Shown here: positions 3,301 through 38,333 of the stretch, one piece after another
Layout: the number at the start of each line of letters is the position of its first letter
Numbering within the stretch: position 1 is the first letter of the stretch
Source: a virus
Lineage: Duplodnaviria; Caudoviricetes
DNA length: 56,979 bases
Virus record (IMG/VR): IMGVR_UViG_3300042260_000461
Location: 1-56,979 of that record
Strand: one strand, 5' to 3'
Made by a program: the position numbers and the translations under genes
The notes under the pieces: generated by a model
The model's database searches: none
Told to the model about the DNA's origin: nothing
The model's input: the letters and a program-made list of their open reading frames with translations, nothing else

Positions 3301-6300
3301 CCAGCCACGTACTCGCGGGCACCGCGCACCAGTTCAGCGACGAACAGGTCGGCGCGCTGCTGCTGGGTCAAACTGCCCTCAAGCAGATCGCTCAGTTTGT
3401 TGGCCAAGTTCTTGTAGCCATGCGCCAGCAACCAATCGCGCACCATGACCGTGACCTTGCGCCAGCCCTTGAGCTTGGCCAGTTGGGCGGTCGGGATGTC
3501 CACGATGGCCTCTTCCACAGCCTCGGCGGTGGACATCTTGTTGCCGCGCTTTTGGATCTCGAAGGCCGCCCGGCGCACGTTAGCGTTGTTGGCAGACACC
3601 AGGGCCATGGCGGTCTTGAGGCTGTCACCCAGCAAGGCGCGCAGGCCAAAGTGGGCGGCCTCATGCTCAAGCAGCACGTGCTCGGCGCGGGCCATGTCAG
3701 ACAGGCCCGATGCGAACAGGTACAGCCCGCCCTCGTGAAATGCGCCTTCCACGTCATCCCAGGCATCCTGGCGAATGATGTACTCGCGCAAGCCCTTGGG
3801 AGCCTTACTGGGGTCAGACAGCACCGTCACCTTGGGCATGTTGGGCATCGTTGCCTTAACGCCGCGCACCATGGCGTCCAGGTCATCGACGCTCACACCG
3901 CCGGACGCAGCGCCAGCGCCGCGAGACAGTCGGGTGTCCTCTGCGGGCTTGACCTCTGACGCCTCAGTGGCCATCCAGTCCTCAGCAGCACCGCCATTGG
4001 TGGAAACTGCCTTGGTGATTGCCTCGTCGGCATTGGTGGCCTGAACATCAAAGCCCAGGCCAGAGGCCTTGTTTTCCACGCGCCAGGTCTTGGGCTTGGA
4101 ATCAGAGGCGATCATGTCCTCCAGGTCGTTGGCCTCTTTCACCTTGTCGGCCAGCATGCCAGCCATGGGGAAAGGCGACTCCAAGCGGCTGGTCAGTGCA
4201 TCGATCTGAGCTTTGGCCTCGGTGATGCGCTCGCGCATCTTGGCGGGCAGCCTGGCCACATCTGACACGGCGTTTTGCGCACGCATGGCCACGCCAATGG
4301 GGCTGGTACCGGCATCCGCGATCAGCAAGATCGGGTCGGGCGTGCCCAGCATCACCTTGGTCATGAACTGGCCTGCAACGGTCTCGCCGCCAAACACCAC
4401 TGGAAAACCGGAGATCTCGCCAATGGTCATGGGCTTGGTCTCGCCCCTGGCGGTCAGGTCCTTGTACTTGGCGATCAGGGCCTCGGCCCAGTCGGCGCGC
4501 TCGGCCAGGGTCTTGCCCATGACCTTGGCGCGGAACTTGTCGCCCGACAGGTCCTGCACCAGGGCGGCCATCTTCTCGGCCTCGGGCATGCGCTTTTGGT
4601 TGAACTCCACCGTTGTGCGCGCCATGTCGTACTGGGACTTGAAGCGGGCGCGCTGGTCCTCGTGGGCGCGGTAAAGGCGCTGGAGCTTTTCGATCTCGGC
4701 GCGAGCCCCTGCCAGTTGCAGGATGCGCGGATCTTCGGCCACCATGGCAGCGGCCAGGTCGTACTGGCTTTGGCTGTCCAGGTCCTCCAACTCGCGCAGG
4801 TTCGCGTCACCGCTCAAGGCCTGGTCGATGAAGAACTGTTTGGATGCGAGCATCTTCCACATGTTCTCGTCGTAGGTGCCCTTGGCGGCGTAGGCGTACA
4901 GCTGCACCAGCGGGTTCTTGTTGCCCTGGCGCACGATGCGGCCCTCACGCTGCTCCAGGTCAGCCGGGTACCAAGGCGAATCCAGGTGAAACAGGGCCTT
5001 GAGGCGCTGCTGTGCGTTCACGCCCGTGCCCATGTTCTTGCTGGAGCCCACCAGCAGGCGCACCCGGCCAGCGTTCACGTCCTTGAACAGCTTGAGCTTG
5101 TCCGCCGACTTCTTGTAGTCGGACATAAAAGCCACCTGATTCATGGGCATGCCAGCATCGCGCAGGCGTTTTTCAAACCAGGCGCGGGCATTGAAGCCGC
5201 GATTGGCGGCCACACCCTCACCAAAGCCAAGGTCAGAAAACACCATCGTGGCCGCGCCCTTGTTGGGCTCGACGTTGCCCGCCTTGTCGCGGTACTCCAT
5301 GTCCTTGGTCTCAGTCAGGACACGGATCACGTCATCGATCATGCGGTTGAGCTTGGAGTCCGGGTCGCTGGGCAGCGATGGATCGATGAAACGCATGTCG
5401 ATGGCAGCCAGGCGGCCATCGCCAATGATGCGGATCATCGGGTCCGGATTGTTCGGCTCGTCCTTGGTTGGCTTCCAGGCGCGGGACTTCTCCACACGGG
5501 CGGAGAGGTCGGACTGGTACCCGTCATAGGCCCCGGTCTTGGGCGTGACGATGATCTTGCGAGATCCGTTCTCCACTTTCGGGCGCTTGTCGCCCAGCAA
5601 AGCGGCCAGGGTGTCCGAAGTCAGCACGTCCGCGAACTCGCGGAACATCTGGGTCAACTCGGGCACGTTCACGAACTTGCTGAACCGGGTCACAGGCTCG
5701 TACTTGCCAGCGGCGTTGGGCTCCAAAACCGTGCGCTCGCGCCCGAACATCGAGGCCCATGAATCGAAGTCCTCGATGCCGCGATCTTCCAAGGCCTGGC
5801 GGTCCATGAACTTTTGCACCGTGTACAACTCGGCCAGGGTGTTGGTCACGGGCGTGCCCGATGCCAGCACCAGCGAGCGGCCTGGGTTCTTTTGCTCCAG
5901 GTAGCGGGACTTCATGTACAGGTCAAAGGCGCGGGCAGAGCCTTGCGGGCTGATGCCCTTGACCTGGCGCGAAGTCGTGAAATCGAGCTTGCGGAACTCG
6001 TGGGCCTCGTCCACGTAGAGCATGTCCACGCCAAGTTCATCGAATCGGACGTTGGTGTCCTTGCCGGTCGATGCCATGGCAGCTTCCAGCTTTTGCTCCA
6101 TGTTCTCGATCTGCTTTTCGATCTGCTTGATGCGCGGGGACTTCTTGCCGCCCTTGCCATCCTCGGCCTCGGCCTCTTCCAGGGCAGCGCGCATGTAGTC
6201 CAGCTGCTCCTCGATCATCTTGCTTTTGAACTCGGGGTCCAGATCCAGCAGCTTGAAAGCGCTGTGCGTGATGACCACGCCATCGAGGTCAGACAGCGCC

Positions 6301-9300
6301 ACACGCGAGACGAAGCGGCGGCGGTTGTCGGTGTGGAAGTTCTTTTCGTCGGCCACCATCAGGCGGGCAGCCGGGTAAAGCATCTGCCACTCGTGCGCAA
6401 ACTGCTTGAGCATGTGGTTGGGCACCACGATCATGGGCTTCTTGATGAGGCCCAGGCGCTTTTGCTCCATGGCCGAAATGACCATCTGGAAGGTCTTGCC
6501 CGAACCCACGGCATGCGCCAGGTAGGTGTTGCCGCGCTGGATGATGCGCCAGGCCCCGCGCTTGACGTGATCGAACACGCTGAACGCCTTGGACGTGCCC
6601 GGCAGCGTCAGGTGACGACCGTCAAAGGATCGCGGCACCGTGGTGTTGAAGGTGTCGTTGTAGATCCGCACCAGGCTATCGGTGCGCTCGGCATCCTTCC
6701 ACACCCAGTTGGCAAAGGCCTCGCGCAGTGCTTCGAGCTTCTGGTTGGCCGCTTCGGTACCGGCAGAGTCAAAGACCGTGGTCTTGTCTTTGCCGTAACC
6801 CTGGCTCTTGGTGATGCGGATGGGCCTGCCGGTCAAGGCATGCTCCATGATGTCCGTCACGTTGCGATCAGCCGTGCCCCAGTCGGCGGTGGCCTGCATG
6901 GTCTTGCCGCCGCTGACCTCCTGAACGGACCATTGCTTGGTGCGCTCATTCCAGGACACCTGGGCGCGCACACCGGCCAACTCGCGCAGGAATTGGCTGT
7001 ACACAGCGCCGGGCACCCAGTTCATGCCGATGCCCACATTGATCTGGCTTGGGGTCTTAGGCGCGGGCTGGGCAGCTTCGAGCGCCGCCACATTGCGCTC
7101 AAAGCGCTTGTCGGTCTTGGCAGCCGTGCGGGCTTCATCCAGTTTGCGCTTGACGTTGCCGCTCAAGTACTCGTCGGCAGTCACCCAACTGACAGCGGGG
7201 TCCTCATAGATGGCGGAGCCCAGGGCCTCGATGGTCTCGGCCTCGGTCAATCCCACGCGCTGGGCGATCAGAGGGATGTCCACATGCCCCACATCGTTGA
7301 GCGATGACAGCATTGCATCGACTGGGGTGTTGACGCTGGCAGCATCGGGCTTGCCCAGCACGCGCTCAGTTAGGAAAGCACTGGGCTTAATCTCGCCCGT
7401 GTCCTCGTTGATGGTCTCCAGAGCCGCGACCAGGGTGTAATCCGGGTCATCCTCCAGCTTGCGCAGCAGGGTGTAGACGCGCACCTGGGTTTCATCGGTG
7501 TAGGTCTCGCCCGTGTCCTCATCGACCACTTTGGACTTGACGGACTTGAGCGTGAATTGGTTGATCTGGCCGTGCTTTTTGGTGAAGTCGGCATAGGCCT
7601 TTTGCAGCGCCTTGATGCTGGTTTCCCAATCGCCCTCGTTCAACTGGTCGTAGTGCGCCTGCTTGAGGGCATCGCGCAGCGGCACAAAGTCCTTGATGAG
7701 TTGCACATCGGCTTGCGAGCGCAACTCCACGCGCTGGCCCACCCCACCCTCACGCACCATCAGCGCGCCGGAGTCGCTGACGTAGTAGTTGCCTTCTTTC
7801 TTGGCCTTGGGGTTGAAGTCGATCTCGCGGACCTTGGCCGCTTCGGCAGAAGATCCACGCTCGGCGGTGTAGATGCCCTCGGGCAGGCGGTTGATCGCCT
7901 TGTCGAACAGGGCCTCGATGTCGCCATCGAGCGGCGCGACCGTGTACTCGCGGTCCTTGTACATGGAGCCCGCATCGGAATGCGTGCCCAGCACCATGTC
8001 CGGGTTGGCCACAAAGTACTCGTTGATGTTGTAGTCGTTGCCGTTGACCTTGAGCGGCACCGACTTGCCCCAGGACTGAGCGCCCTCGAAGGTCTCACCT
8101 GGCACTTTTTTGCGCAGGAAGATCACATCTGTGACCACCTCGGTACCGGCGTTTTGCTTGAAGGCGGTTTGAGGCAGGCGAATTGCGCCCACCAGGTCCG
8201 CACGGTCAGCCAGGTACTGGCGCGCCTTGTCATCGAGCTTGTCCATGGTGTAGCGGCTGGTGACGTACACCACCAGACCGCCCGGCTTGGTGCGATCAAT
8301 CGACTTGGCAAAGAAGTAGTCATGCAGGCTGAATGCCCGCTTTGCGTACTCTGGATCGCTCAGGATCTTGGTGCCAGAGAACGGCGGATTGCCGACCGAC
8401 ACGTCATAGAAGTTCTTGGGCAGCTTGGAGTCCACGAAGGACTCGACCAGGATGCGCTCGTCGGGGAACAGCTGCTTGAGGATGCGGCCCGTGAAGGAGT
8501 CGAACTCGATGCCGGTGTAGATCGAGTTTGCGGCCATGGCGGCGGGCATGAGGCCTGGGAACACGCCGATGCCAGCGCCTGGCTCCAGAATGGCCCCGCC
8601 CTTGAAGCCCATGCGGTCCAGTGCGCGCCACATCGAGCGCACCACTTCCTTGCTGGTGTAGTGGGCGTACTGGGTCGAGCGCGAGGCCTCGGCCCATTCC
8701 TTCTCGGACATGGACGCCTTGAGGCGGTTGCGCAACTCCACCCACTTGCGCACGCTGGGCTCGGGCTTGGCCTTATCCAGCATCTCGCGGGTGATGTTGC
8801 CCGCCGTGTACCAGGTCAACTGCGGGTTGCGGTATTGCAGGACCCGGAAGGCAGGCGCGTACTCGCCGTAGCGGGCGTTGGTCAGGAACGGGCGATCACC
8901 CAGGGCGGCGATGGCCTCGTCGTAGTTGCTCAGCGCCTCGGCGGCCTTGTCCAGCTTGTCGCCAAACAGGTTGTTGGCGATCTCGGAAGCGCCCCAGCCA
9001 ATGAACTTGGCCAGCTTCGCCTGCTCTTCGCGGGTGGCCTGGCGGCCATCCTTCTCCAGCGACAGCAGCAGTTCAATGGCTTCGAGGTTCTGCTCGGCCT
9101 TCTTGAACCAACTGCCCTCATAGCTCAGGTCGGAGGCTGAGAAGGCGTAGTTTCGTCCGGACTTTGCGGGGATGTCGCGTCCTGCGGGAACTCCAGCATT
9201 TCGGCCAGCACGATCTCGCGGTTGAGGCTGCTTGCTGTTCGCATCCTGGCCGCGCACTCCATCGGCCCCAGCTTGTCCCACCCCTCCTTGATCCGCTGCG

Positions 9301-12300
9301 TTTGCGTCAGCGTCACCACCTGCGAAGAGATCTGATCCGCCAGGTCTTGGGCGTACTCGTTGAGTTGGCCGCTTGCCGCCAGGCTGCGATACAGCGCGGG
9401 TGCCTTCTCCTTGATCGCGTCCTTGACCAGCGTTATCGTTTGCATCTTGATCTCCAGTTTTCTCGCCAGTATATCCATTTCCGGATATTTGTGGTACAGT
9501 TGTGTCGAGAGGTGTTGAAATGAATGTTCCAGACAGATTCCCACCAGGCTGCGAGTTCGGCATGGACTTGACCGACGACGATGGCGTGGAGTTGGTGTAT
9601 GTCGAATTCCCCGATGGCAAGCGCTTTGTGCTCAACGAAAAGTCGCCTTGGGATGGCATGTCGCCAACCACCTGGTGGCCCTTGCGTTGGTCGAGATTGA
9701 CTGAGGCTGGTTTCTTGGAAGCAGCAGGCAAGCCAGCAGAAGTGGTCGCAGCAGCACGTGCAGCCGCTGCGGAGGCGGCCAGCGGATAAATTTCACGCTG
9801 CGCCGCAATGGCGTTAGCTTGCGTTTCAGAGCCTTCGGGCTCTGCTCTCTCGATCTCATAGAGCTTATGCCCCTCGGCGTTCTTGACCGCCAGCATTTCG
9901 GGCACATTGATTTGGATCTCGGCAGTCGTGCCATTGGCGGTGCGAACATTGACCAGCACCTGGCCATAGCCAGAGTCCAAGAACCCAGCCTTGCCACTGA
10001 CTTCTGTCGCCTTGATCCCGGCGTCTGACTGATCCTTGATGCGCTTGGGCAGGATCTCAAACTCTTTTCTGATTGCATCGACCACGGCCTGAGCATCGGC
10101 GTAGCTGCTCACCACAATGGTCGAGCGCAGCATGTCGTACATCTTGCCGGGGTCGAAGTTAACGCCCTCATCCGTCACCAGCTTTTCAACAGAGCGAGCA
10201 AGCCCCTTTACTGGTGCAAGCATCTGGCCAAGTGCGCCGGTGCTCTTGGCGATGTCGATGATCTTCTGGTCGTACTCGGCCTTGGCTTCATTGGCGCGCT
10301 CAATGAGCGGCTTGAGCAGCTTCTCGGCCTTCTCACGATCCTGCGCGCTGATCTCGACAGGTGCGGCTGATTTGAGCAGGCGGCCAATTTGGTCGCGTGC
10401 GTTCGCCAGGACATCAGCGGGGATGAAGGTGTCGGTTTCAGGCGGGGCGAAGTTGTCCAGCTTCATGTCGTACGGGCGGCCATCGATCATGGCGGCCTTG
10501 GGCTTGTCTGCCAGGTCGGCCAGCGCATCCCCGAACAGATCTTGCTGACCCATACGGGCCTCGGCAGCTGCGAACAAATCATCGACACGCTGGGCCGACT
10601 CGCGGGCCATGGCCTGCTCGGCAGCCTTGCGGTACAAGTCGGTGGCAATCTTGTTCCAGAAGGTCTTGAGCTTCGGATCGTTCTTGAGCGCCTGCTTCAC
10701 GTAGGCCACCAGATCCTTGAGGCTGTAACCCACTTCCTTGATACCGGCCTCCATCAGGCGGATCAACGTGGGCATGAGGTCCGGTGTCTTTTCCGGGACC
10801 ATCATCAAGCGCGTGTGCTTGGTGGCGATCATGGCCAGGTCAGCCATGGCGTCCTTGAAGTCTTGACGGGCTTGGGCACGCGCCTGGTCGGTTGCAGCGC
10901 CATCGGAGCGCTTGACGCTCGGAAACTGGAACGTGGCGGCCATCAAGTCACGGATGGGCGCGTCAAACTCGATCACCTTGACCGGCTCATTCATAGCCAG
11001 GGCAGCCACCCACTGGTGATGACCGTCCAGCACATAGCCATCGGCGGATGCCAGCACAGAGCGGTCTACGCCATCGCGCACTTGTTTCCAGCGCTCGGCC
11101 TTCTTGCTCGAAAACTCGGCCTGGGTCGGCTTGAGGTCAGCGGCTGGGCGCTCGACCGTCTTGTGCTCGATGCCCTTGCCTTGCAGGAATTGGATCAGCG
11201 CGCCGCGATGCTCGCTTTTGACCTGGGGCATTTCGGCACGGGGAATGCCGATGGTGCCGGTGTCGGGCGGGAACATCACCCATTCGCTTTGCTCTCCTGC
11301 TTGGGTTGCGGCAGTGGCGCGGGCAGCCCCATCGCCTTGATCGCCGCCGCGATTGCTCGGCGCATCTTGGGATTGCTGTCCACCTGGCGCATCAGCTTGC
11401 GCACCTTCTCCAGGGTCTCGCCGCTGGGTGTCTTGGGCAGTGTTGCCATTGTCATTTCCTCGTGCAGATTTCAGAAGGTCGGCGCGTGCCGGTGCGGTGT
11501 CGGTGTCGCCAAAGATCAAGCCTTGGCTGGGGTCTCCAGCAGCTTCCAGGGCCTCGTAGTAGCGCTGCACGAACTCGGCAATGCGGCGCGGGCTGCGGAT
11601 GTTGTCGGCCAACAGGGTCAAAAGCTGGGAAGCCTCGGGCGAGTACTTCGCGCCCGTGAGGTCGCCTTGGCCAAGTTCGTCGGCCACGCTCCAGCCCTTT
11701 TCCTTGAGGGCGGACAGGCCTTCAACGGCGGCCAGAAGATCCGGCGCAATGTCGGCCTCGTACAAGGTACCGGCCTGCATGCGCTCACGTGATGCTGCAA
11801 TGGTCGGGGCCACACGCACCAGTGCCTTGGTGACGTTGCGCAGGTTGTCATCCATGCTCTCGGTCATGCGGCGCAGCGTGGGCGAGTCACCGTAGGCCTT
11901 GGCCAGCACGGCGTTTTGGATGCGCCGGTAGCCGAACGTGGACAGGCGGCCATCGGACTCCACCATGTCCGACTGCTCAGTGATCGGCAGCATGGCCATG
12001 AACTGGCGGATGAAGTCGTAGGACGTGGTGAAGTCACCGGCATCGTCAGGGCTCAAGCCTTCCAGGGATGCCAGGCGCTTGGAGTCAGACACGGCCTGCT
12101 CGCTGGGGCTCATGCGCTGCACGGTCGAGGCGTTGGCCTGGCGTGCGAACTCGGCGCGGTTCACCGGGGTCTGGCGCAGGCGCACTAGCACCGGCTTGGC
12201 CAAGCCATCCACAGCCTCGGGCGTGAGGCCGAATTGACCGGCGTTCTCGCGCAGCCAGGCCTTGTAGTCCTCGGCCTTCTGACCATTGGCCTGATACACG

Positions 12301-13904
12301 CGCTTGAGGGCGATGGTGCGGGCGTTGCCCGACTCCACCAGGCCATCAGCGCCAACAATCGGCGCGCCCGTGGCGGCGTCAGCCGACAAGCCCAAGCGGG
12401 CCGGGTCGAGCTTTTGCACGATGCTGGAGACCTGCAACTCGCTGGCCGAACGGCTGCGGTCGCGGGGCTGCAATTCCTGGGGGTACAGGCTGTTGGGGCG
12501 CAGGCTCTCGTCGTGCGATGTCACCAGGTCGGCGGCATCCATCAGGGCGTACTGGCCATTGAGCCTGACGCCTGCCTCGGTCGAAAAGCTGGTGGATGCG
12601 CCCGGCTGGGCCTTTGGCCAAGACTGGGCGATGCTGGCGCGCTCGCTGGCCAACTCCTGGGCCTTGGTCGCCAGTTCGGCGCGCTCCTGGTCAAAGGCGG
12701 GGCCGTAGCCGTTCTCGGCGGTCAATTCCTGTGTGCGCTCGGCAATGCGTGAGATCTCGGTATCGATCTCGCCCACACGGTCCAGGGCAGTGAGCGATAC
12801 CGGCGTGCGCAGGGCTTTCTCGGCCTCGGTAGGCTGCGTCACAGCCATATTGGGCGCAGTGGCCGATTGCGGTGTGACAGGTGCTTGGCTCTGTGCTGGC
12901 GCTGGCTGGGGGGCGTTTCCGGATTCAGGTGTGATGGGCTTTTGTTCCCCAGCCTGGCCGATGGCGTTGCGGGCAGCCGAATACGTGTTCATGCCGCCGC
13001 CCATACCGGCACCGGCCACCATGCCCTGGGCGGCAGCCTCTGGCACGCCCTCGTCCCATGGCTTGCCCAATGCCAGGTTGGTGAAAACCTGCTCCTGGGC
13101 AGACTGCGGCAGTTCCTCCAGCACACCCTCTTTGAATGTGCCCTTGGCGATCTCTTTGCCAGCCTGCACAAGGCTCTGGCGCTGTGCGCCGCCCATGCCT
13201 GCAACGGCTGCGCCGACTTCAGCATCACGGAAGCCGGGAATCTTGGATGTGACCAGGCTGATGGCAGCCGTGCCCAAGCCGCCAGCAACGGCGGCAGGAG
13301 CGGTGTCGGTGTAGTCTCGGCCAGCTTGGCGGCCTGCCTCCTGAATACTGCCTGCGGTCATCGCGCCTTCGGTGGCTGCGCCGATGCCGGTCAACTTGGC
13401 AATGGTTGCAGGCTTGGCCAAGAAGGCGGCAGCCTCAGCGGTACCGGCCTTGATACCGGCAGAGGCCAGCATCTTCGAGGCGGCGGCGCGCACTGCGGCG
13501 GCACCGCCCAACATCATCGGCGTGGATTCAACGATGGAGCCAACGGCAGCGCTGGGGTTTTGCACCAGGGCCTTGGTCGTGTCCACGAAGCCTTTGGCCT
13601 GCGAAACCTCACGATTGGCCTGCTGGCGCGGGTCGCTGTAAAAGTCGCTCAGGATCTGCTTGGTTTGCTCAGGGTCGTAGCCCATAGCCCCCAAGCCCTT
13701 GCCCACCAGGTTGCCGGTGGCCAGATCTGCCAGGCCTACGGCAGACTCACCAAACCCAACAACGCCCTTGGCCAGGTCGATGCCTGAGTCGGCAATAGCC
13801 TCGCCCCAAGTGCGATCGCGCTGATCTGGTTTTTTCTTCGACTGCTCTTGGTCCGGAACAAACCGACCACTAGACTCAGAATTTTCGTCCGGTACAAATG
13901 CCAT
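336..13904 (-). CDS. Giant DarB-like polyvalent (probably virion-injected) protein: DdrB/ParB-like, second ParB-like, RelA/SpoT-like synthetase, N6-adenine methyltransferase, SNF2 helicase, zincin metallopeptidase and C-terminal LPD-like domains
   Basis: 4522 aa. Motifs: VESGNARTIAL; LKPTQ..DGHHQW; K..RSVEK/DMLRSTI/GY/EIQI/HKLYE; ILEPGAGIG and NPPF; AHAVGSGKT, DEAH, QREGRIVRQG; HEAAH. Last gene of the late arm, after the ejection genes. Confidence 0.9.
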   Translation of the reverse strand: MAFVPDENSESSGRFVPDQEQSKKKPDQRDRTWGEAIADSGIDLAKGVVGFGESAVGLADLATGNLVGKGLGAMGYDPEQTKQILSDFYSDPRQQANREVSQAKGFVDTTKALVQNPSAAVGSIVESTPMMLGGAAAVRAAASKMLASAGIKAGTAEAAAFLAKPATIAKLTGIGAATEGAMTAGSIQEAGRQAGRDYTDTAPAAVAGGLGTAAISLVTSKIPGFRDAEVGAAVAGMGGAQRQSLVQAGKEIAKGTFKEGVLEELPQSAQEQVFTNLALGKPWDEGVPEAAAQGMVAGAGMGGGMNTYSAARNAIGQAGEQKPITPESGNAPQPAPAQSQAPVTPQSATAPNMAVTQPTEAEKALRTPVSLTALDRVGEIDTEISRIAERTQELTAENGYGPAFDQERAELATKAQELASERASIAQSWPKAQPGASTSFSTEAGVRLNGQYALMDAADLVTSHDESLRPNSLYPQELQPRDRSRSASELQVSSIVQKLDPARLGLSADAATGAPIVGADGLVESGNARTIALKRVYQANGQKAEDYKAWLRENAGQFGLTPEAVDGLAKPVLVRLRQTPVNRAEFARQANASTVQRMSPSEQAVSDSKRLASLEGLSPDDAGDFTTSYDFIRQFMAMLPITEQSDMVESDGRLSTFGYRRIQNAVLAKAYGDSPTLRRMTESMDDNLRNVTKALVRVAPTIAASRERMQAGTLYEADIAPDLLAAVEGLSALKEKGWSVADELGQGDLTGAKYSPEASQLLTLLADNIRSPRRIAEFVQRYYEALEAAGDPSQGLIFGDTDTAPARADLLKSARGNDNGNTAQDTQRRDPGEGAQADAPGGQQSQDAPSNRGGDQGDGAARATAATQAGEQSEWVMFPPDTGTIGIPRAEMPQVKSEHRGALIQFLQGKGIEHKTVERPAADLKPTQAEFSSKKAERWKQVRDGVDRSVLASADGYVLDGHHQWVAALAMNEPVKVIEFDAPIRDLMAATFQFPSVKRSDGAATDQARAQARQDFKDAMADLAMIATKHTRLMMVPEKTPDLMPTLIRLMEAGIKEVGYSLKDLVAYVKQALKNDPKLKTFWNKIATDLYRKAAEQAMARESAQRVDDLFAAAEARMGQQDLFGDALADLADKPKAAMIDGRPYDMKLDNFAPPETDTFIPADVLANARDQIGRLLKSAAPVEISAQDREKAEKLLKPLIERANEAKAEYDQKIIDIAKSTGALGQMLAPVKGLARSVEKLVTDEGVNFDPGKMYDMLRSTIVVSSYADAQAVVDAIRKEFEILPKRIKDQSDAGIKATEVSGKAGFLDSGYGQVLVNVRTANGTTAEIQINVPEMLAVKNAEGHKLYEIERAEPEGSETQANAIAAQREIYPLAASAAAARAAATTSAGLPAASKKPASVNLDQRKGHQVVGDMPSQGDFSLSTKRLPSGNSTYTNSTPSSSVKSMPNSQPGGNLSGTFISTPLDTTVPQISGNGYTGEKTGDQDANDNAGQGRDQGEGTRAVSQPGGKRPTQRVRPRPGGSDLFAGGDADANAADQGGVGQAGADGVRGQDANSKQPQPRDRAGRNAGVPAGRDIPAKSGRNYAFSASDLSYEGSWFKKAEQNLEAIELLLSLEKDGRQATREEQAKLAKFIGWGASEIANNLFGDKLDKAAEALSNYDEAIAALGDRPFLTNARYGEYAPAFRVLQYRNPQLTWYTAGNITREMLDKAKPEPSVRKWVELRNRLKASMSEKEWAEASRSTQYAHYTSKEVVRSMWRALDRMGFKGGAILEPGAGIGVFPGLMPAAMAANSIYTGIEFDSFTGRILKQLFPDERILVESFVDSKLPKNFYDVSVGNPPFSGTKILSDPEYAKRAFSLHDYFFAKSIDRTKPGGLVVYVTSRYTMDKLDDKARQYLADRADLVGAIRLPQTAFKQNAGTEVVTDVIFLRKKVPGETFEGAQSWGKSVPLKVNGNDYNINEYFVANPDMVLGTHSDAGSMYKDREYTVAPLDGDIEALFDKAINRLPEGIYTAERGSSAEAAKVREIDFNPKAKKEGNYYVSDSGALMVREGGVGQRVELRSQADVQLIKDFVPLRDALKQAHYDQLNEGDWETSIKALQKAYADFTKKHGQINQFTLKSVKSKVVDEDTGETYTDETQVRVYTLLRKLEDDPDYTLVAALETINEDTGEIKPSAFLTERVLGKPDAASVNTPVDAMLSSLNDVGHVDIPLIAQRVGLTEAETIEALGSAIYEDPAVSWVTADEYLSGNVKRKLDEARTAAKTDKRFERNVAALEAAQPAPKTPSQINVGIGMNWVPGAVYSQFLRELAGVRAQVSWNERTKQWSVQEVSGGKTMQATADWGTADRNVTDIMEHALTGRPIRITKSQGYGKDKTTVFDSAGTEAANQKLEALREAFANWVWKDAERTDSLVRIYNDTFNTTVPRSFDGRHLTLPGTSKAFSVFDHVKRGAWRIIQRGNTYLAHAVGSGKTFQMVISAMEQKRLGLIKKPMIVVPNHMLKQFAHEWQMLYPAARLMVADEKNFHTDNRRRFVSRVALSDLDGVVITHSAFKLLDLDPEFKSKMIEEQLDYMRAALEEAEAEDGKGGKKSPRIKQIEKQIENMEQKLEAAMASTGKDTNVRFDELGVDMLYVDEAHEFRKLDFTTSRQVKGISPQGSARAFDLYMKSRYLEQKNPGRSLVLASGTPVTNTLAELYTVQKFMDRQALEDRGIEDFDSWASMFGRERTVLEPNAAGKYEPVTRFSKFVNVPELTQMFREFADVLTSDTLAALLGDKRPKVENGSRKIIVTPKTGAYDGYQSDLSARVEKSRAWKPTKDEPNNPDPMIRIIGDGRLAAIDMRFIDPSLPSDPDSKLNRMIDDVIRVLTETKDMEYRDKAGNVEPNKGAATMVFSDLGFGEGVAANRGFNARAWFEKRLRDAGMPMNQVAFMSDYKKSADKLKLFKDVNAGRVRLLVGSSKNMGTGVNAQQRLKALFHLDSPWYPADLEQREGRIVRQGNKNPLVQLYAYAAKGTYDENMWKMLASKQFFIDQALSGDANLRELEDLDSQSQYDLAAAMVAEDPRILQLAGARAEIEKLQRLYRAHEDQRARFKSQYDMARTTVEFNQKRMPEAEKMAALVQDLSGDKFRAKVMGKTLAERADWAEALIAKYKDLTARGETKPMTIGEISGFPVVFGGETVAGQFMTKVMLGTPDPILLIADAGTSPIGVAMRAQNAVSDVARLPAKMRERITEAKAQIDALTSRLESPFPMAGMLADKVKEANDLEDMIASDSKPKTWRVENKASGLGFDVQATNADEAITKAVSTNGGAAEDWMATEASEVKPAEDTRLSRGAGAASGGVSVDDLDAMVRGVKATMPNMPKVTVLSDPSKAPKGLREYIIRQDAWDDVEGAFHEGGLYLFASGLSDMARAEHVLLEHEAAHFGLRALLGDSLKTAMALVSANNANVRRAAFEIQKRGNKMSTAEAVEEAIVDIPTAQLAKLKGWRKVTVMVRDWLLAHGYKNLANKLSDLLEGSLTQQQRADLFVAELVRGAREYVAGKSPVSRVGYMGDTRLSTTLKDDIERQEKWLQTEARARGFTDVEDMLAKDYPLFERLAAKWREKNPAEDGVMLSRRKDARERADEILSQKAGSRAPLDALAKGLTRITGIERLTGAIYDRAGYLLDRYTPETIKAGVVADYGVPQAVIDQRVLLQGRQRVQLRKAGELIEKLSTLTREESRVAYEWMNMDGADPKAYVSMMQGLPEESVKVLQDVQKMIDQLSREAVRLGQLSPEAYEANKYAYLRRSYAKHILEQTAGEKAKRARVISILGDQYKGRGLTEAATMAKLKNTAPEWWGRKLVKGKADAGLKGEKFVRLERRAASGEGTKPLEGMEGKALGKLLEVAYWPAGETIPSQYSEWSKAGTFEVRDVKGENVIFWRDFTKDERETMGEVDEARFAIAKTLHGMIHDVEVGRYLEWMAHGYALKEGETIPGEVVEASERYRDTFKPGEWVRVPDTKISGTSVAKYGKLAGRYLPGPVWNDLRQVVNGQFKPFGDTYAQILSMWKTAKTALSPAVHMNNVMSNFVMADWHDVGAAHVAKSLRLILAASQREGQGALGGLGNKLAKAGIADREAAREILNRYTDSGGDVGSWVTNEIAKDQLEPLLAKLEQELAATGGQSAQAEVGVMSALQNALMLRFPTAWEAFKGSKPGKAIGTEANSLIDLYQAEDDVFRLAAWLKAKEEGATDIDAGKASRRSFLDYSINAPWIQAMRQSAWPFISFTYRAVPMLAEIAGKKPHKLMKLMLLAGALNALGGMLAGGDGDDEERKLLPEEKAGKIWGMVPKLIRMPWNDQHGSPVYLDIRRFIPVGDVFDVGAGQAAVPVLPGMMPGGPLVLFGEVVFNKSAFTGKPITLDTDTPLQKAEKVADHLYKAFAPNVLGLPGTYATTGVSEAAQGKTDAFGREQSVAQAVASSFGVKLGSYPADVLRRNLNAKAQAEIAEVEKNIAQLKRQRQTNRISQDEFQEAVQVEVQKKTKIMRDLAEKVK
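9125..9445 (-). CDS. Nested +1-frame gene, TnpV-like helical protein (106 aa)
   Basis: GGAGA RBS 5 nt before ATG. KEKAPALYRSLAASGQLNEY..KEG..MECAARM..REIVLAEML resembles the TnpV family. The host frame here is low-complexity linker. Confidence 0.7.
   Translation of the reverse strand: MQTITLVKDAIKEKAPALYRSLAASGQLNEYAQDLADQISSQVVTLTQTQRIKEGWDKLGPMECAARMRTASSLNREIVLAEMLEFPQDATSPQSPDETTPSQPPT
9471..9488. promoter_or_regulatory. 18-bp operator inside the giant gene, within a divergent promoter
   Basis: ATATCC-ATTTCC-GGATAT, a perfect match to the motif at the cI/cro and early promoters. It overlaps a minus-strand -10 TATACT (9468-9473); a plus-strand extended -10 TGgTACAGT lies at 9492-9500. 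Confidence 0.75.
9520..9789 (+). CDS. Nested antisense gene (89 aa), candidate antitoxin of the embedded RelA/SpoT-like domain
   Basis: GAGAGG RBS and its own extended -10. Globular-looking aromatic/acidic sequence (MNVPDRFPPGCEFGMDLTDDDGVELVYVEFPDGKRFV...). Ends tail-to-tail with the synthetase domain. Confidence 0.65.
   Translation: MNVPDRFPPGCEFGMDLTDDDGVELVYVEFPDGKRFVLNEKSPWDGMSPTTWWPLRWSRLTEAGFLEAAGKPAEVVAAARAAAAEAASG
11276..11449 (-). CDS. Nested +1-frame gene (57 aa), basic helical protein
   Basis: GAGGA RBS 8 nt before ATG. MATLPKTPSGETLEKVRKLMRQVDSNPKMRRAIAAAIKAMGLPAPLPQPKQESKANG*. Below the ORF-track cutoff; the host frame is low-complexity. Confidence 0.6.
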   Translation of the reverse strand: MATLPKTPSGETLEKVRKLMRQVDSNPKMRRAIAAAIKAMGLPAPLPQPKQESKANG

Positions 13905-13955: not shown

Positions 13956-15599
13956 TTACTGCCAGGTGCCGGACTTGCCGCCGATGGTGATCCGGTCGCC
14001 CTTCTTGATCTTGCCCTCTTTGGCGGCCTTTTCTGCATCGGCCTCACTGGCAAATGTCGCCCCGGCAGGCTTGGCAGAAGCAGGCATGGCCCAGCGGCCA
14101 TTGGTCTTGGCGTAACCCATGGTCTCCATCACCTTGTCGGCGGACGCCACGGCATCCTCGGGCTTGGCCATGTTCTTGATGCCAGCGGCCACGAAGTCCT
14201 TGTGCAACTCGCCAGGGTCCTGGGTTTTCTTGGTCAGGGCCATTTCCAGGCCTGAGCGCATGTCAGGCGCAAGGCCAGCATTGACCATGGCCTGAGCCAG
14301 CTTGACCTCAGAAGGCGCGTTCTTGCTGTCCGGACTCACATCGATGACGCCACGGCGCACTGCCTCCAACTCGGCAGCGGTCGCATTCGGGTTGCGCTGC
14401 TTGAACAGTTCCACGGCAGCGGCAGCCTTGGCGGTCTTGTCGTTCTGTTCGGTCGTGGCGGATGTGGATGCGCGAGCATCGGCATTCTTGGACAGTTGCA
14501 GCTGCTCGTTGCCGCGCCGGTTGGTTTCGCTCTGGTAGAAACGGTTGAACACTTCACCGGCCTTACCCAGTGAGTCCAGTTCGGCCACGGTGTTGATCGT
14601 GCGGGTGTTGCCCTGGCTATCCTTAAACTGAATGACACGGGTCTCCACACCATCCTTGTTCTTGACCATCTTGTCAGAGATCACGTTGGCCGGGTCAAAC
14701 TGCACCTTGCCGTTGGCATTGAAGGCCTTGGCCACCTCCTGGAGCGAGCCGCCAGACTGGGCCAGGCGCAAAGTCTTTTCGTAGCCCTCGCTTTGCACCT
14801 TGTTGAGCAGGTCGGTGAATTCTCCAAAGGCCTTGGCATCGAGCTTGCCAAAGCGGGCATCGTGGTCGATCAGTGAGGCGCGGTCGGCCAGCGCATCGCC
14901 CACCGAGTACTCGGGACGGGCAGGTGCCACAGGGGCTAGGCCCAACTCGGGGCCTGCTTTGCCGGAGGCCTTGGCCCCTTCATAGTCAGCCAGGCGCTTT
15001 TGGTATTCGCCCATGGCCTGGTTGTAGGACTGCTGGTTTTGGCCAAAGCGTGAGGACGAAAACAGGCCCTTGCGCCCTTCCTCGTATTCCTTTTGTTTGG
15101 CCACTTCCTCGTCCTGGCGCTCCCAGTTCTTTTGCTCGCGGCCAAAGCGCTGTTGCTCCTGGGTAAAGCGTGCCTCGTCACGCTGGCCAGCAATGGCCTG
15201 CTGCTCCATCTGCATGCCGCGCACGGGGTCGAACTTCTTGAGGACACCGGCCATGGCCATGGTCTTGGCGTTGTTAGCCTGGCTGGGCGTCATGGTGCCC
15301 GCCGTGCGCTGCCCCATGAAATCAGTCACGCCCTGCTGGGCGATCACGGCAGTCTCGCCGCCAGCTTTGGGGGTGACTGTGTAGCCCTTCTTGCCCTCGT
15401 CATAGGCGATGTCGTACTGGCCAGACTCGGCAGCGGCGCGCAGTTGGTCGCCCTGCTCTGCTGTGAAGCCTTCGCTCGTGGTGGGCTGCTCGCTGGCAAT
15501 CTTGCGCATCTCGGAGTCCTGCAAGACCTTGCTCACAGTGCCGTAGCCCTGATTGAAGCCCTCGAAGAACTCTGCAACTCGGTTTCGACGTGCCATCAC
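13956..15599 (-). CDS. Putative internal virion/DNA ejection protein
   Basis: 547 aa, Ala/Gln/Lys-rich and helical; lies between an ejection gene and the giant gene. Confidence 0.65.
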   Translation of the reverse strand: MMARRNRVAEFFEGFNQGYGTVSKVLQDSEMRKIASEQPTTSEGFTAEQGDQLRAAAESGQYDIAYDEGKKGYTVTPKAGGETAVIAQQGVTDFMGQRTAGTMTPSQANNAKTMAMAGVLKKFDPVRGMQMEQQAIAGQRDEARFTQEQQRFGREQKNWERQDEEVAKQKEYEEGRKGLFSSSRFGQNQQSYNQAMGEYQKRLADYEGAKASGKAGPELGLAPVAPARPEYSVGDALADRASLIDHDARFGKLDAKAFGEFTDLLNKVQSEGYEKTLRLAQSGGSLQEVAKAFNANGKVQFDPANVISDKMVKNKDGVETRVIQFKDSQGNTRTINTVAELDSLGKAGEVFNRFYQSETNRRGNEQLQLSKNADARASTSATTEQNDKTAKAAAAVELFKQRNPNATAAELEAVRRGVIDVSPDSKNAPSEVKLAQAMVNAGLAPDMRSGLEMALTKKTQDPGELHKDFVAAGIKNMAKPEDAVASADKVMETMGYAKTNGRWAMPASAKPAGATFASEADAEKAAKEGKIKKGDRITIGGKSGTWQ

Positions 15600-16717
15600 T
15601 TCACCTCTTCAAATTCGATGCCCAGCATCTGGTAGTTGACCGAGGCAAAGCCCATGTCGTCGTACACCACGGCATCCGGGAACCGTGGCTCAACCTCATC
15701 GGCCATGACGCCACGGAAGCGGGTCGGGTTGCCGGTGTAGTTGAACTCGTACAGGTTCAGGCCCGTGGCCTCATCTTTGCCAACCAGGACAATGTTTTCC
15801 TTGAGTCGGCGGTCTGAGAAGGCTGTGTACAGGCTGGCAGCGCCACCCAGCACAGAGCCCACGCCACCGAGGCCGCTGTCCATGTCAGCCACAGACTTGG
15901 CGTAGTTGCCTTGAGCGTTCATCACACCAGTCAGGCCCGTCATGGCGATCTGGCGGCCATTCATGGTGGTGTTTGCGCCCGTGGTCATGCCAGTCATCAA
16001 TGCCCCACCTGGGGCCATCTGGTTTGTCATGGCGCTGTTGCCACTGTTGGTACCGGCAGAGTAGAAGCTGGGCGCGCTCGAAGCCATGCCCGAGTAGGTG
16101 TTGAGCGTGTCGCCCATGCGCGCATAGGACTTGTCCACGGCCTGGGTGCGTCCGGTGTTGGCAGCGCCCGCCTTGGCTGTTGCCGCGCCCAGATCCATGA
16201 CGCCCTGCATGGCAGCAAATCGCCCGCTGTTGGGGTTGACGCTCATGCGCGTCATGGCTCGATTGGTCTGCTGGCGCTGGTTGTCCATCGCGGCAGACAC
16301 ATCGGCCACGTTCTCCGTGGCCGCCTTATCCATCTGGATCTGCAACTCGGGCGAGACCTTGCCCATGGCGATGTCGCGCATGGCCTGCTGGAGCGGTCGG
16401 CCTTCGGTCTTGAAATTCTCGAAGCTGTAATTGCCCTGCTCGTAGGCCTGGTCCATGTTGCGCTTTTGAGCGTCAACGATGGGGCGAGCGATCTCAATGT
16501 TCTGCTCGTACTGGCGGCGCGACTCGGCCATTTGCTCGCGGCCAAGCTGCGCAGAGATCTCGGCGGCCTCCTTCGAGGCTTGAGCCACAGGGGTGTAGTC
16601 CGGTGGAGGCGGCGCATCGCCGCCAAAGTCCAGGTGGCACACGTTGCGCCAGTTGTTGCCGTGGATCTCGCGCAGCGACTCCAGCCGCTGCTCAAACCGT
16701 TCGCGTTTGGTTTTCAT
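15596..16717 (-). CDS. Putative ejection protein with C-terminal peptidase S74 / intramolecular chaperone domain
   Basis: True start MKTKRERF (AAGGAG RBS, ATGA overlap). GGDAPPPPDY motif, Gly/Ala/Met-rich body, SDRRLKENI..GVMADEV. Confidence 0.75.
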   Translation of the reverse strand: MKTKRERFEQRLESLREIHGNNWRNVCHLDFGGDAPPPPDYTPVAQASKEAAEISAQLGREQMAESRRQYEQNIEIARPIVDAQKRNMDQAYEQGNYSFENFKTEGRPLQQAMRDIAMGKVSPELQIQMDKAATENVADVSAAMDNQRQQTNRAMTRMSVNPNSGRFAAMQGVMDLGAATAKAGAANTGRTQAVDKSYARMGDTLNTYSGMASSAPSFYSAGTNSGNSAMTNQMAPGGALMTGMTTGANTTMNGRQIAMTGLTGVMNAQGNYAKSVADMDSGLGGVGSVLGGAASLYTAFSDRRLKENIVLVGKDEATGLNLYEFNYTGNPTRFRGVMADEVEPRFPDAVVYDDMGFASVNYQMLGIEFEEVK

Positions 16718-17904
16718 GGGGTGGCTCCTTCGCGGTGACGGGATGCAGCCACTTGGCCAATCACCGTATGAATATCGATGCTGTGCCGGGCTTCCATCTC
16801 GGCCATGTACTTGGCCAAGGTGTCGCCCTGCACCAGGTTGTAGATGGCGGGGGCCACGTCCAGGCCCCACTCGTACCCGCCCACCAGTTCGGCGCAAGTG
16901 ACGAACACGGCACCGACATGCACGCGCAGCATGTGCGCCTTGCGCCAGGCCTCACGGTCTGTCGTGGCCTCAAAGTGGTTGGCTGCATGCCAGGCCGAAA
17001 TGCCAGCGGCCAGCACCGGGGCCAGCACTGCGGCATGGCGCACGTAAAACGGATTGAGCGGCAGATCTACCAGGCAGGCGCGGAAAGCGGCATTTACGTC
17101 ATAGCCGCGCACTGCCTTGTCGCCATCGATGATGTCATCCCATGTGTGCAAGATGTTGTACAGCGCAGTGCACAGGCGAATGGCGTCCTGATCGCCCTGC
17201 ATGGCCTCGGCCAAGGTGGTGACGCCTTGGGTCTGCGTCTGGGCAGGCTTGCGCAGGATGTAGATGGCCGCCGTGATGTTGCCGCCATGGGGGGCGTGGT
17301 CGTGATCGCCAGCATGCGAGTAGCCCTCCATGAAGCGGTGCCAGCGGGAAAAGTCGGCCCGCACGTGGCGGGCTTGGCGCTCGACCGAAAACCCGGCAGC
17401 CTCGGCGTAAGTGGTCAAGGCGTCCGGGTGATGCACCGTGTAGCCCCAGCGGCTCTCGCTCACGCCACAGGTGCGGTTGTGCGAGACAAAGCCGAAATCT
17501 TTGATGCACAGCTTGCCGCCAGGCTTGAGCAGGCGCATGGCCTCATCGAGCAGCGGGCGGATGCGACCGTAGCCAAAGGACTCGTTGAACATCACCAGGT
17601 CCGCGCACCCATCGGGCAGGCCGGTGTTGGCCATGTCGGCAATGCGGATGGTCACGCCCGGCAGAACGTGGTCGGCCTGCACTGGCGAGTTGGTCACGCC
17701 AATGCACTCAAGGTCGGGGTTTTGGTGCCAAAAGTAGTGGCTGACGCCACCAATGCCGCAACCGAGATCCACCACAGTGCCAGTCGGCTGGTAGATCTCG
17801 TACAGAGCCCGGCAGTGCGCTTTCTCGTCAGGGGCGAACATCGCGCCCTGAAAGACGCGCATCCCGGCACTCAAAAACTCGCGGGTGGCATCCTCATAGT
17901 CCAT
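16714..17904 (-). CDS. Class I SAM methyltransferase fused to a DDxxD isoprenoid-synthase-like domain
   Basis: VVDLGCGIGG, NESFGY and RLLKPGG motifs; helical C-terminal half with HTWDDIIDGD. Confidence 0.8.
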   Translation of the reverse strand: MDYEDATREFLSAGMRVFQGAMFAPDEKAHCRALYEIYQPTGTVVDLGCGIGGVSHYFWHQNPDLECIGVTNSPVQADHVLPGVTIRIADMANTGLPDGCADLVMFNESFGYGRIRPLLDEAMRLLKPGGKLCIKDFGFVSHNRTCGVSESRWGYTVHHPDALTTYAEAAGFSVERQARHVRADFSRWHRFMEGYSHAGDHDHAPHGGNITAAIYILRKPAQTQTQGVTTLAEAMQGDQDAIRLCTALYNILHTWDDIIDGDKAVRGYDVNAAFRACLVDLPLNPFYVRHAAVLAPVLAAGISAWHAANHFEATTDREAWRKAHMLRVHVGAVFVTCAELVGGYEWGLDVAPAIYNLVQGDTLAKYMAEMEARHSIDIHTVIGQVAASRHREGATP

Positions 17905-19008: not shown

Positions 19009-19275
19009 CTATTTAAACAAGAGGCAGTAAGCCAAGCCCGGATTCGGTGAGTTCCAGGTGAAGATTTTTGTTGCGTTGTCAAAAGAGCATGCGGCATTGC
19101 GCACAGATCCTGTTGACGCCACAAAACCAAACACGCCAAGCGATGTGTCAAATGCAGGCACGTAGGCGCTTCCGCTCTGCGCTGTGCTTGAGTAAATGAT
19201 GCGACTGAGCCGATCTGAGATCTCAAGCCTCGTAGCACCGCCAGCGTCAAAAACTCTTAGTCCGAACGGCATCAA
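19009..19275 (-). CDS. Small tail-associated protein
   Basis: MPFGLRVFDAGG N-terminus; directly follows the J-like gene. Confidence 0.6.
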   Translation of the reverse strand: MMPFGLRVFDAGGATRLEISDRLSRIIYSSTAQSGSAYVPAFDTSLGVFGFVASTGSVRNAACSFDNATKIFTWNSPNPGLAYCLLFK

Positions 19276-33026: not shown

Positions 33027-33247
33027 TCGTACAGCCCCATGCGCCGGTCATGCTCGGCCTGCTGGCGCTTGTCCTCTTTGTGCCGGTAGTACCAGTTCAC
33101 AAAGAAACCGCCGACAGCCACAAGCAGGCCGATCAGGATGGTGAATTCACTCGATAGCACCCAGCCCATGACGCTGGTGCCCGCGCCCGTGTACGTCGCC
33201 TTGCTGGCTGCGGCGCTGATCGTGGCTTCAAGTGTTGGTTCCTGCAT
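33023..33247 (-). CDS. Holin
   Basis: Small TM protein with VNWYYRHKEDKR tail, upstream of the endolysin. Confidence 0.8.
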   Translation of the reverse strand: MQEPTLEATISAAASKATYTGAGTSVMGWVLSSEFTILIGLLVAVGGFFVNWYYRHKEDKRQQAEHDRRMGLYE

Positions 33248-37956: not shown

Positions 37957-38333
37957 CAGTGCCCCCCGACTCCACGGGAAAGCACATCGAGCAGCATGCC
38001 CGCTAGTTTTTTGGTTTCGCTCTCGTACTGGTTGATCTTGGCTCTCTGGCCAGGCAGCCATGCTGGGCGCAGCTTCAAGGCAAGCACGTCATCATCCACG
38101 GTCACTATCCAGCTTTCGCGGTCTCGTGACAGCAGCAGGCGGTGAAACTCCAGGGTGACGATGTGAAAGCGCAAGGAATCAACGCGCTGGCCGGGTATGA
38201 GTTGGTTCATGTCAACCGGATCAGCGGCTTCAATGCGAACGCGCCCCATGCGCTGCGCAAACTCCAGCGCCCACAACGGCAGGTCAATGACCGTGATGGG
38301 CTCCATGTCTCGGGTGTACAGCACCACATTCAT
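37956..38333 (-). CDS. Hypothetical protein
   Basis: 125 aa, translationally coupled to terL. Confidence 0.7.
   Translation of the reverse strand: MNVVLYTRDMEPITVIDLPLWALEFAQRMGRVRIEAADPVDMNQLIPGQRVDSLRFHIVTLEFHRLLLSRDRESWIVTVDDDVLALKLRPAWLPGQRAKINQYESETKKLAGMLLDVLSRGVGGH

Follow-up and report, generated by a model that had tools for sequence, protein, structure and literature searches.

Results

A synthetase domain and a small antisense gene share one giant phage gene

We examined a stretch of DNA from a tailed phage (IMG/VR virus record IMGVR_UViG_3300042260_000461, 56,979 bp, completeness estimate 97%; hereafter referred to as the window), in which a giant open reading frame (ORF) on the minus strand (positions 336..13904; 4522 aa by ORF call and translation) encodes a polyvalent DarB-like virion protein. 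Within this ORF lie a domain of the Tas1/Apk-like RelA/SpoT-type synthetases (toxSYNTH; 9786..10415, minus strand, giant residues about 1164-1373) and, on the opposite strand, a nested gene for an acidic 89-aa protein (9520..9789, plus strand, giant residues 1372-1462), which we predict to be the immunity protein, or antitoxin, of that domain. A first-pass annotation, made by a model from the sequence alone, had described an embedded synthetase with a candidate antitoxin gene tail to tail with it, and the layout is as described: the stop of the 89-aa ORF falls on the codon of Tyr1373, at the end of the toxin domain, and the product has the acidic and aromatic character attributed to it (pI 4.34, 15 D+E, 4 W, and 5 F). 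The antisense ORF overlaps about 270 nt of the giant gene, and the third codon positions are common to the two frames.

The embedded domain is a RelA/SpoT-type synthetase nearest to Tas1

All five motifs on which the embedded synthetase had been proposed were found, at giant residues 1230-1351, and the catalytic residues K1233, R1237, K1241, D1257, R1260, Y1313, E1329, Q1331, K1341, and H1346 are present. The synthesis motifs (basic K/R, D..R, G-Y, E-I-Q, and H..Y) are intact, and their columns are invariant or nearly so in an alignment of 32 sequences. The 15 invariant columns of this alignment include K70, K78, D94, R97, G149, Y150, E166, and H183 in domain numbering and, in the numbering of the giant protein, K1233, K1241, D1257..R1260, G-Y1313, E1329-I, and H1346. 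When the single sequence was compared with the sequences of the Protein Data Bank (PDB), Tas1 (6ox6_A) was the sole match below E 0.1 (E 1.5e-5), and a profile built from nine relatives matched the same chain at E 3.6e-13. The AlphaFold2 model of the domain (32 sequences) reached a pLDDT of 94.4, and its best Foldseek match was again 6ox6_A (E 1.1e-7, TM 0.59/0.64), followed by RelSeq, the exported Streptomyces synthetase SaEAS, RelA, Rel, SpoT, RelQ/RelP, and CapRel. There were 67 Foldseek matches at E ≤ 1e-3, and all of those listed were of the RelA/SpoT, small alarmone synthetase (SAS), or CapRel type, with a probability of 1.00. Further, the Pfam family RelA_SpoT matches 24 of the 32 members of the domain family at E ≤ 0.01. 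On the strength of the sequence profile, the fold match, and the intact motifs, we take the embedded synthetase as confirmed despite a Pfam score for the window's own copy that lies below the cut-off (see "Discussion"). In the model, the domain has the fold of the RelA/SpoT homologue (RSH) synthetases, a central sheet with flanking helices, and its homology to them is firm. Judged by both sequence and fold matches, its nearest known branch is the (p)ppApp-making Tas1/Apk branch and not the tRNA-modifying one; the product itself is a prediction.

The domain was found in 65 IMG/VR contigs and eight genome contigs. In Azospirillum chromosomes (L078, L079, and L081-L084), it occurs as standalone Tas1-like proteins of about 239 aa (in L081 at 2462-3181), which adjoin a gene for an ABC-transporter ATPase; these may be housekeeping or orphan (p)ppApp-type synthetases.

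An antisense ORF accompanies the domain at most of the related loci

Length was rejected as evidence for the antisense gene: antisense ORFs of 89 aa or more number 26 within the giant gene (the longest 641 aa), and 14 of them are in the same register as the 89-aa ORF, so that a length of 89 aa is not above chance. The openness of the frame was likewise set aside, because stops in this register arise only at Tyr, Gln, or His codons of the giant frame (worked out from the genetic code), from which the Ser/Pro/Gly/Ala-rich linker is largely free; inside the toxin domain, the same register has 4-10 stops per 210 codons.

We therefore looked to the 73 related loci that carry the toxin domain. A profile of the ORF gave a full-length match on the opposite strand, directly after the toxin domain, in 38 of them (E < 1e-3). 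Including that of the window, these ORFs comprise 32 distinct sequences, which start with ATG (30 sequences), TTG (one), or GTG (one). A second, sister subfamily, with the consensus ..FLDVEGIPVTLG..AAWD..PRPFP..NGAPI.., occupies the same place in the same phase at 23 loci; two of these match both profiles, which leaves 21 additional loci, and the two subfamilies together cover 59 of the 73. The other 14 comprise five loci with a third type of ORF, one with a weak match, one that is unclear, one in which the place falls at the contig end, and the six of Azospirillum. The third type (MFKVPEGA.VW...LKDGS.V...; L046-L050, about 3046-3318, minus strand) again has the same place and phase, beside a more distant copy of the toxin domain that is followed in its polyvalent protein by ART-PolyVal. 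We note that the pair occurs in differing host proteins, the module being followed by ddrB-ParB in L071 and by ART-PolyVal in L046. This indicates that the toxin and the antisense gene travel together as a module into different polyvalent proteins.

The antisense frame is under purifying selection

Because the two frames share their wobble positions, codon-position periodicity cannot separate them. We thus used a test of transversions at the shared wobble sites, in which sites are sorted by the residue change that a transversion causes in each frame and, for every pair of sequences, the first two letters of both codons are identical. In the linker, over all 496 pairs of the 32 sequences, the frequency of transversions was 0.067 where only the antisense residue would change, compared with 0.264 where only the giant residue would change and 0.425 where neither would. 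The toxin domain of the same sequences, which served as the control, gave 0.392, 0.084-0.107, and 0.340 for the three classes. An alignment of the linker made in the giant frame gave 0.080, 0.261, and 0.410. The column bootstrap put the ratio to neutral in the linker at 0.16 for the antisense frame (confidence interval (CI) 0.06-0.36) and at 0.62 for the giant frame (CI 0.37-0.94), whereas the control domain had ratios of 1.15 (0.98-1.37) and 0.31 (0.18-0.48), respectively.

With 16 disjoint pairs, the linker counts were 7/117 (antisense-only change), 11/77 (giant-only), and 44/150 (neither); the Fisher test gave p 6.5e-7 for constraint on the antisense frame and p 0.014 for that on the giant frame. 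The corresponding counts in the control were 83/271, 29/410, and 114/464; here the giant frame is constrained (p 1.1e-12), and the antisense frame, with an odds ratio of 1.36 (p 0.08), is not. The sister subfamily repeats the pattern, with ratios of 0.31 (CI 0.04-0.63) for the antisense frame and 0.38 (0.14-0.78) for the toxin frame. Amino acid identity, which is weak evidence alone, differs in the expected direction: 0.441 for the antisense versus 0.392 for the giant frame in the linker, and 0.476 for the giant versus 0.407 for the antisense frame in the toxin domain. Overall, we conclude from the substitution pattern that the antisense frame is protein-coding; purifying selection acts on it no less strongly than on the toxin domain itself, and over the same linker letters the giant frame is the more weakly constrained of the two. 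Taken together, these two properties indicate that the stretch is dual-coding.

A putative promoter and ribosome-binding site are written in wobble letters of the giant frame

The first-pass annotation had given the 89-aa ORF a promoter of its own, which proves to be real in the comparative sense. Upstream of the ORF, on the plus strand, lie an extended −10 promoter element (TGgTACAGT, 9492..9500) and a Shine-Dalgarno sequence (GAGAGG, 9507..9512), 7 nt before the ATG at 9520, and both are conserved across the relatives. The hexamer TAnnnT was present 25-28 nt upstream of the start in all 32 unique sequences (T in 32, A in 32, the fourth-position A in 31, and the sixth-position T in 32), and the TG of the extended element was kept to a lesser degree (T 22/32, G 28/32). 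A GGAG, GAGG, or AGGA core occurs within −16..−5 of the start in 31 of the 32. Letters 1 and 4 of the hexamer fall on wobble positions of the giant frame, where the giant strand has fixed A and T letters, in genes with a median GC content at third codon positions (GC3) of 0.82. The giant residues encoded at the −10 codons vary (Ser/Thr/Asn/Ile and Val/Ile), so the constraint on the box acts on the nucleotides and not on the giant protein. It appears, then, from the conserved letters that the antisense gene has a putative host-type promoter and a ribosome-binding site written in rare A/T-ending codons of the giant frame.

The small protein is predicted to cover the catalytic cleft of the domain

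The AlphaFold2 model of the 89-aa protein, built from only nine sequences, consists of five strands followed by two helices (pLDDT 85.8, pTM 0.75). The ORF and its family had no match in sequence searches of Pfam, PHROGs, or the PDB. A profile search of 1.84 billion representatives returned 65 proteins at E ≤ 1e-3, 29 of them at E ≤ 1e-10; they are mostly of 62-90 aa, align from residue 1, and, where looked up, lie mostly on short contigs and are unnamed or "hypothetical." Two longer relatives, P0034 (198 aa, from a 13-member cluster) and P0039 (398 aa), join the small-protein domain to extra C- or N-terminal regions of ordinary composition.

To model the complex, the toxin domain and the small protein were co-folded with a hand-made alignment of 32 rows for each partner. 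The three runs gave ipSAE values of 0.75, 0.84, and 0.67, compared with 0.00 for the best of three controls; at least 78% of the contacts were common to the runs, and the partner pLDDT was at least 86. Of 80 solved complexes, 58 attain the ipSAE mark used, as do 2 of 110 mismatched pairs. The predicted interface on the toxin comprises domain residues 65-82, 94, 97, 150, 168, and 178-191, which in giant numbering are 1228-1245, D1257, R1260, Y1313, Q1331, and 1341-1354, that is, the catalytic motifs; on the small protein, it involves residues 14-25, 39-43, and 52-61. The small protein is thus predicted to sit over the catalytic cleft of the toxin domain.

The carrier is a DarB-like giant protein at the end of the late structural block

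The phage is a Bcep22/Gervaise-like podophage whose genome the window covers almost completely, and the giant ORF is the final gene of its late structural block. Family matches place the terminase (36382..38061), the portal (33228..35609), an internal virion protein (20933..22612), a tail fibre (19272..20936), and a structural/ejection protein (15596..16897) upstream of the giant ORF on the same strand. In addition to the RSH domain, Pfam finds in the giant protein ddrB-ParB (residues 445-577), an Eco57I-type methylase (1828-1902), SNF2 (2457-2649), and Helicase_C (2930-2994); with these domains and its structural-gene neighbours, the giant ORF has the composition of a polyvalent protein. The toxin domain lies between the ParB-like nuclease region and the methylase-helicase module.

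By tblastn, the C-terminal two-thirds of the protein resemble the "DarB-like antirestriction" giants of the Burkholderia phages Bcep22, BcepIL02, BcepMigl, DC1, JC1, and CSP3, and many Ralstonia phages match the same part. With the region around the toxin domain as the query, the match in the phage collection was confined to the methylase end, and the toxin domain is absent in the named Bcep22-like phages; a blastn search of the plasmid collection with the region gave no match. Pfam searches found no PAAR or MuF domain in the giant protein (E ≤ 0.1) or in six other carriers (E ≤ 0.001), and no HD-type hydrolase (HD_4) is encoded in the window.

The JC1 homologue (4515 aa) is virion-associated by mass spectrometry, with 51 unique peptides, and two promoters have been predicted within the DarB-like gene of JC1 (gp69) in the opposite direction (PMC9144972, section 3.3 for the promoters). 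These predicted promoters suggest that antisense transcription inside DarB-like giant genes may be more general. Separately, about 0.8 of the sampled words of 9100-10500 were present in the small sequencing runs X6-X13, whose labels give a single coded organism. A close relative of the phage is thus probably present in cultured material, which would permit experiments.

A second nested gene and a graded series of overlaps

Beyond the antisense gene, the linker contains a second nested ORF, which encodes a TnpV-like protein of 106 aa in the +1 frame of the giant ORF (9125..9445, minus strand; Pfam PF14198, 31.1 bits at a cut-off of 27). Such an ORF occurs in 21 of the 73 loci, at an offset of +1 every time, and Pfam TnpV matches 13 of 20 family members at E ≤ 0.01; a search of the phage collection with the ORF gave no match. 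Each copy has its ATG after a G-rich Shine-Dalgarno-like run (judged by eye, uncounted), and the signals of the window's copy, on the minus strand, are GGAG (9452-9455) and TATACT (9468-9473). The codon-position test (0.441/0.425/0.467) was not decisive. Across this ORF, the giant frame is of low complexity and rich in G/R/D/Q. The TnpV-like and antisense genes diverge across 74 nt (9446-9519), which gives this segment the look of a divergent promoter region and suggests that the giant frame reads through one; in doing so, it encodes the conserved motif GTFISTPLDTTVPQISGNGYTG.

Other loci show lesser degrees of overlap. In L051-L056, a standalone toxin of 304 aa (2156-3067) converges with a gene for a 71-aa protein on the other strand (3025-3237), and the two overlap by 43 nt, which may be the ancestral layout. 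Elsewhere, the toxin ORF runs 100-160 codons across the small gene, and in the group of the window it is buried well within the giant ORF. This series suggests that the toxin ORF grew across a convergent immunity gene.

Discussion

A probable toxin domain with a predicted inhibitor on the reverse strand

We consider it likely that the giant virion protein carries a Tas1/Apk-like adenosine 3′-pyrophosphokinase domain whose cognate inhibitor is encoded antisense within the same ORF. The first-pass annotation had proposed a toxin domain with an antisense immunity gene, and this proposal gains support from three sides: from the co-occurrence of domain and ORF across homologues (38 of 73 loci, plus 21 with the sister subfamily, the six of Azospirillum having none), from the complex prediction, in which the pair passed, and from the analysis of selection. 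As regards the enzyme product, its toxicity, binding in cells, the packaging of the giant protein, and the timing, we infer the following course of events. The small protein would bind over the catalytic cleft, as Tis1 does on Tas1, and the domain would remain silent in the virion-making cell and in any lysogen. By analogy with JC1 and with DarB of P1, the giant protein would enter the virion and leave it together with the DNA, losing its non-covalently bound inhibitor. In the new host cell, the domain, now free, would briefly make (p)ppApp or something related, until host RNA polymerase, transcribing the antisense gene early, caused it to be silenced again. With no HD-type hydrolase for (p)ppApp among the genes of the window, the binding inhibitor would be the only protection.

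Several points weigh against this interpretation. The Pfam RelA_SpoT score (PF04607) is below the curated cut-off of 27, both for the whole protein (18.7 bits) and for the isolated domain (23.3 bits). The six standalone bacterial copies of the domain, those of Azospirillum, have neither a nested nor an adjacent small partner ORF, so the domain is not always paired. The giant protein of JC1 does not have the toxin domain, and packaging of the window's giant protein is therefore argued by analogy only. In the complex prediction, the calibration counts for the ipSAE mark hold only roughly here, because our alignments were hand-made and the predictor was calibrated without such alignments; further, because a like complex, 6OX6, has been solved, part of the pass may be memory.

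The likeness of the small protein to Tis1 is also slight. The 89-aa protein has no sequence likeness to Tis1 at E ≤ 10, and Foldseek of its model versus the PDB gave nothing at E ≤ 1e-3. In a VIA-align fold search, which is independent of Foldseek, Tis1 (6ox6_B, 76 aa) ranked second of 48,161 chains (57 residues aligned, rmsd 3.5 Å), at a Z of 4.7, a weak match, as VIA-align warns that a Z under 8 may reflect a common arrangement; the first rank, at Z 4.9, went to an unrelated superoxide dismutase. As Z is low and sequence similarity absent, we treat the predicted likeness to Tis1 as a lead and not as membership of that family.

As for RNA, a 248-nt contig of one metatranscriptome (X17) falls within the antisense ORF (9526-9773), and the rest of that set contributes just a 32-nt match; a second (X16) contains pieces at 9323-9474, 9487-9734, and 11151-11314; and a third (X20) contains one at 9863-10021. 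The contigs of these three sets are strandless and of depth 2-5, and RNA libraries can contain DNA, so they were not counted as evidence of expression. The raw RNA run X24 had no reads placed on the region.

Alternative explanations

It could be that the antisense protein is real but does not inhibit the adjoining domain, acting instead as an assembly or packaging chaperone or a regulator, or being an unrelated moron in a tolerant linker. The small protein has no sequence similarity to any characterised immunity protein, its longer relatives (P0034 and P0039) hint at other contexts, and the TnpV-like ORF shows that a second, apparently unrelated gene can lie in the same linker. On the other hand, the small ORF always adjoins this toxin domain, whichever domains follow downstream; the predicted interface falls on the catalytic motifs, with all controls at 0.00; and Tis1 came second in an unbiased fold search. 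We regard this alternative as unlikely.

That the two proteins are a toxin and its inhibitor, but that the domain acts like CapRel, FaRel2, and PhRel2 on the 3′ ends of tRNA, pyrophosphorylating them, or else synthesises (p)ppGpp, we hold to be improbable. Tas1 is the only solved relative of the domain detectable by sequence. Further, according to published work (PMC11782079), Tis1-like domains neutralise (pp)pApp synthetases by covering the acceptor site, and pseudo-zinc-finger domains act on the tRNA-modifying relatives by blocking the donor site; the partner described here resembles Tis1 (weakly, in fold) and not a pseudo-zinc-finger domain, and the published dichotomy pairs Tis1-like partners with makers of (pp)pApp. 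Some room for another product is nevertheless left by Foldseek, whose matches of probability 1.0 include CapRel (7ztb_B, E 4e-5) and numerous synthetases of (p)ppGpp, and by the substrate not being readable from sequence with the methods used; in Apk2, an exchange of the syn motif failed to swap specificity (PMC12226406).

Finally, it is very improbable that the 89-aa ORF is not a gene but a by-product of a conserved Ser/Pro/Gly-rich linker without Tyr, Gln, or His codons. In favour of a by-product are the 26 antisense ORFs of this length or more in the same gene, the restriction of stops in the register to those codons, a mild constraint on the giant frame itself (ratio 0.62-0.64; 11/77 versus 44/150, p 0.014), and the location of most database matches on short contigs (0.9-2.5 kb), on which spurious ORFs may be called as genes. 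Against it, the sites silent in the giant frame are constrained like true coding sites when the antisense residue would change, conserved A/T wobble letters build the −10 box and the Shine-Dalgarno sequence, the fold is confident, and the complex prediction passes versus controls.

Relation to known systems

By sequence profile and by fold, the solved system nearest to the domain is Tas1/Apk1-Tis1 of Pseudomonas aeruginosa (6OX6), in which a (p)ppApp-synthesising effector of type VI secretion is paired with an immunity protein. Like Tis1 (76 aa), the partner family is small (68-91 aa), and an inhibitor on the catalytic cleft, predicted here, is published for Tis1 (PMC10083569, PMC11782079). 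Unlike Tas1, the window's domain comes with no PAAR and no secretion system, its carrier being a phage virion protein; and unlike the tis1 gene, which is downstream and co-directional, the partner gene is antisense and nested, and its product has no detectable sequence similarity to Tis1.

The Apk2 MuF polymorphic toxins of temperate phages are likewise phage-borne (p)ppApp synthetase domains; they are fused to a head protein, thought to be injected, and neutralised by a small binding immunity protein (IapK/BcTis1; also Aph1) (PMC12226406, PMC10083569). Unlike these, the giant protein of the window has no MuF domain by Pfam, the window has no HD-type hydrolase, and the partner gene lies on the opposite strand, whereas published apk2 genes are in operons "followed by" tis1-like genes (PMC12226406, PMC10083569). 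The arrangement also differs from the bicistronic same-strand operon of a type II toxSAS, as here a 4522-aa protein contains the toxin as one of its internal domains and the partner is encoded antisense.

[quoted passage not shown] Like the polyvalent/DarB-like giants of Bcep22-like phages, the window's giant protein has ddrB-ParB, a methylase, and an SNF2 helicase. PMC5512222 mentions neither antisense nor TnpV, and in PMC12226406 and PMC10083569 the words "antisense" and "opposite" are absent. Full-text literature searches for a nested or antisense immunity gene found nothing of the kind; the supplementary sequence sets of Iyer 2017 and Ahmad 2023 might include these proteins.

Antisense overlapping genes are known, for example two long ones in P. 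aeruginosa, where the embedded ORF is likewise under purifying selection (PMC8850804; review PMC7457138). Unlike those, the nested gene described here is old and widespread, with relatives outside the overlap and a predicted partner beside it.

In pore-forming colicin operons, the immunity gene lies on the opposite strand, convergent with the toxin gene, and has its own constitutive promoter, independent of toxin induction. The colicin immunity gene lies between genes, whereas the predicted immunity gene of the window lies inside the reading frame of the toxin.

What was already known, therefore, is that RelA/SpoT domains occur in phage polyvalent proteins (PMC5512222) and that MuF-fused (p)ppApp toxins have downstream Tis1-like and hydrolase immunity (PMC10083569, PMC12226406). 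New are the DarB-like carrier without PAAR or MuF; the partner family without a sequence link to Tis1; and the antisense-nested, dual-coding position of the predicted immunity gene, kept over two or three subfamilies, with a promoter in the wobble letters of another gene.

Origin and implications

We tentatively propose, as a possibility that we ourselves find somewhat doubtful, that giant polyvalent phage genes grow by reading through their neighbours, so that about 600 nt here serve three genes, and that the nested immunity gene acts both as a timer and as lysogen immunity. A convergent toxin-immunity pair would have been absorbed once the toxin ORF lost its stop; the ORF would then have crossed the antisense of the immunity gene, the divergent promoter region, and the out-of-frame TnpV-like gene before running on into a methylase-helicase gene. 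On this proposal, the giant protein's "disordered linker" would be the shadow of two other proteins. As a timer, the host-type promoter on the incoming DNA would drive the nested immunity gene and so end a brief burst of (p)ppApp made by the ejected toxin domain; lysogens would also be made immune to the same weapon of related phages.

Toxin-immunity pairs are normally neighbouring genes; here, the predicted immunity gene is read from the opposite strand of the frame that encodes the toxin and has been retained there across dozens of divergent phages. Antisense overlapping genes of prokaryotes rarely come with a testable function, and the one in the window has a named partner and a simple assay. 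As standard gene callers omit genes nested in long ORFs, they may systematically overlook immunity, anti-defence, or regulatory genes that lie within "linkers" of the giant proteins of phages and plasmids. The DarB-like carrier would be a third delivery vehicle for (p)ppApp-type toxins, besides PAAR/type VI secretion and MuF, and it makes testable how a phage carries a fast ATP-consuming enzyme without poisoning its own factory.

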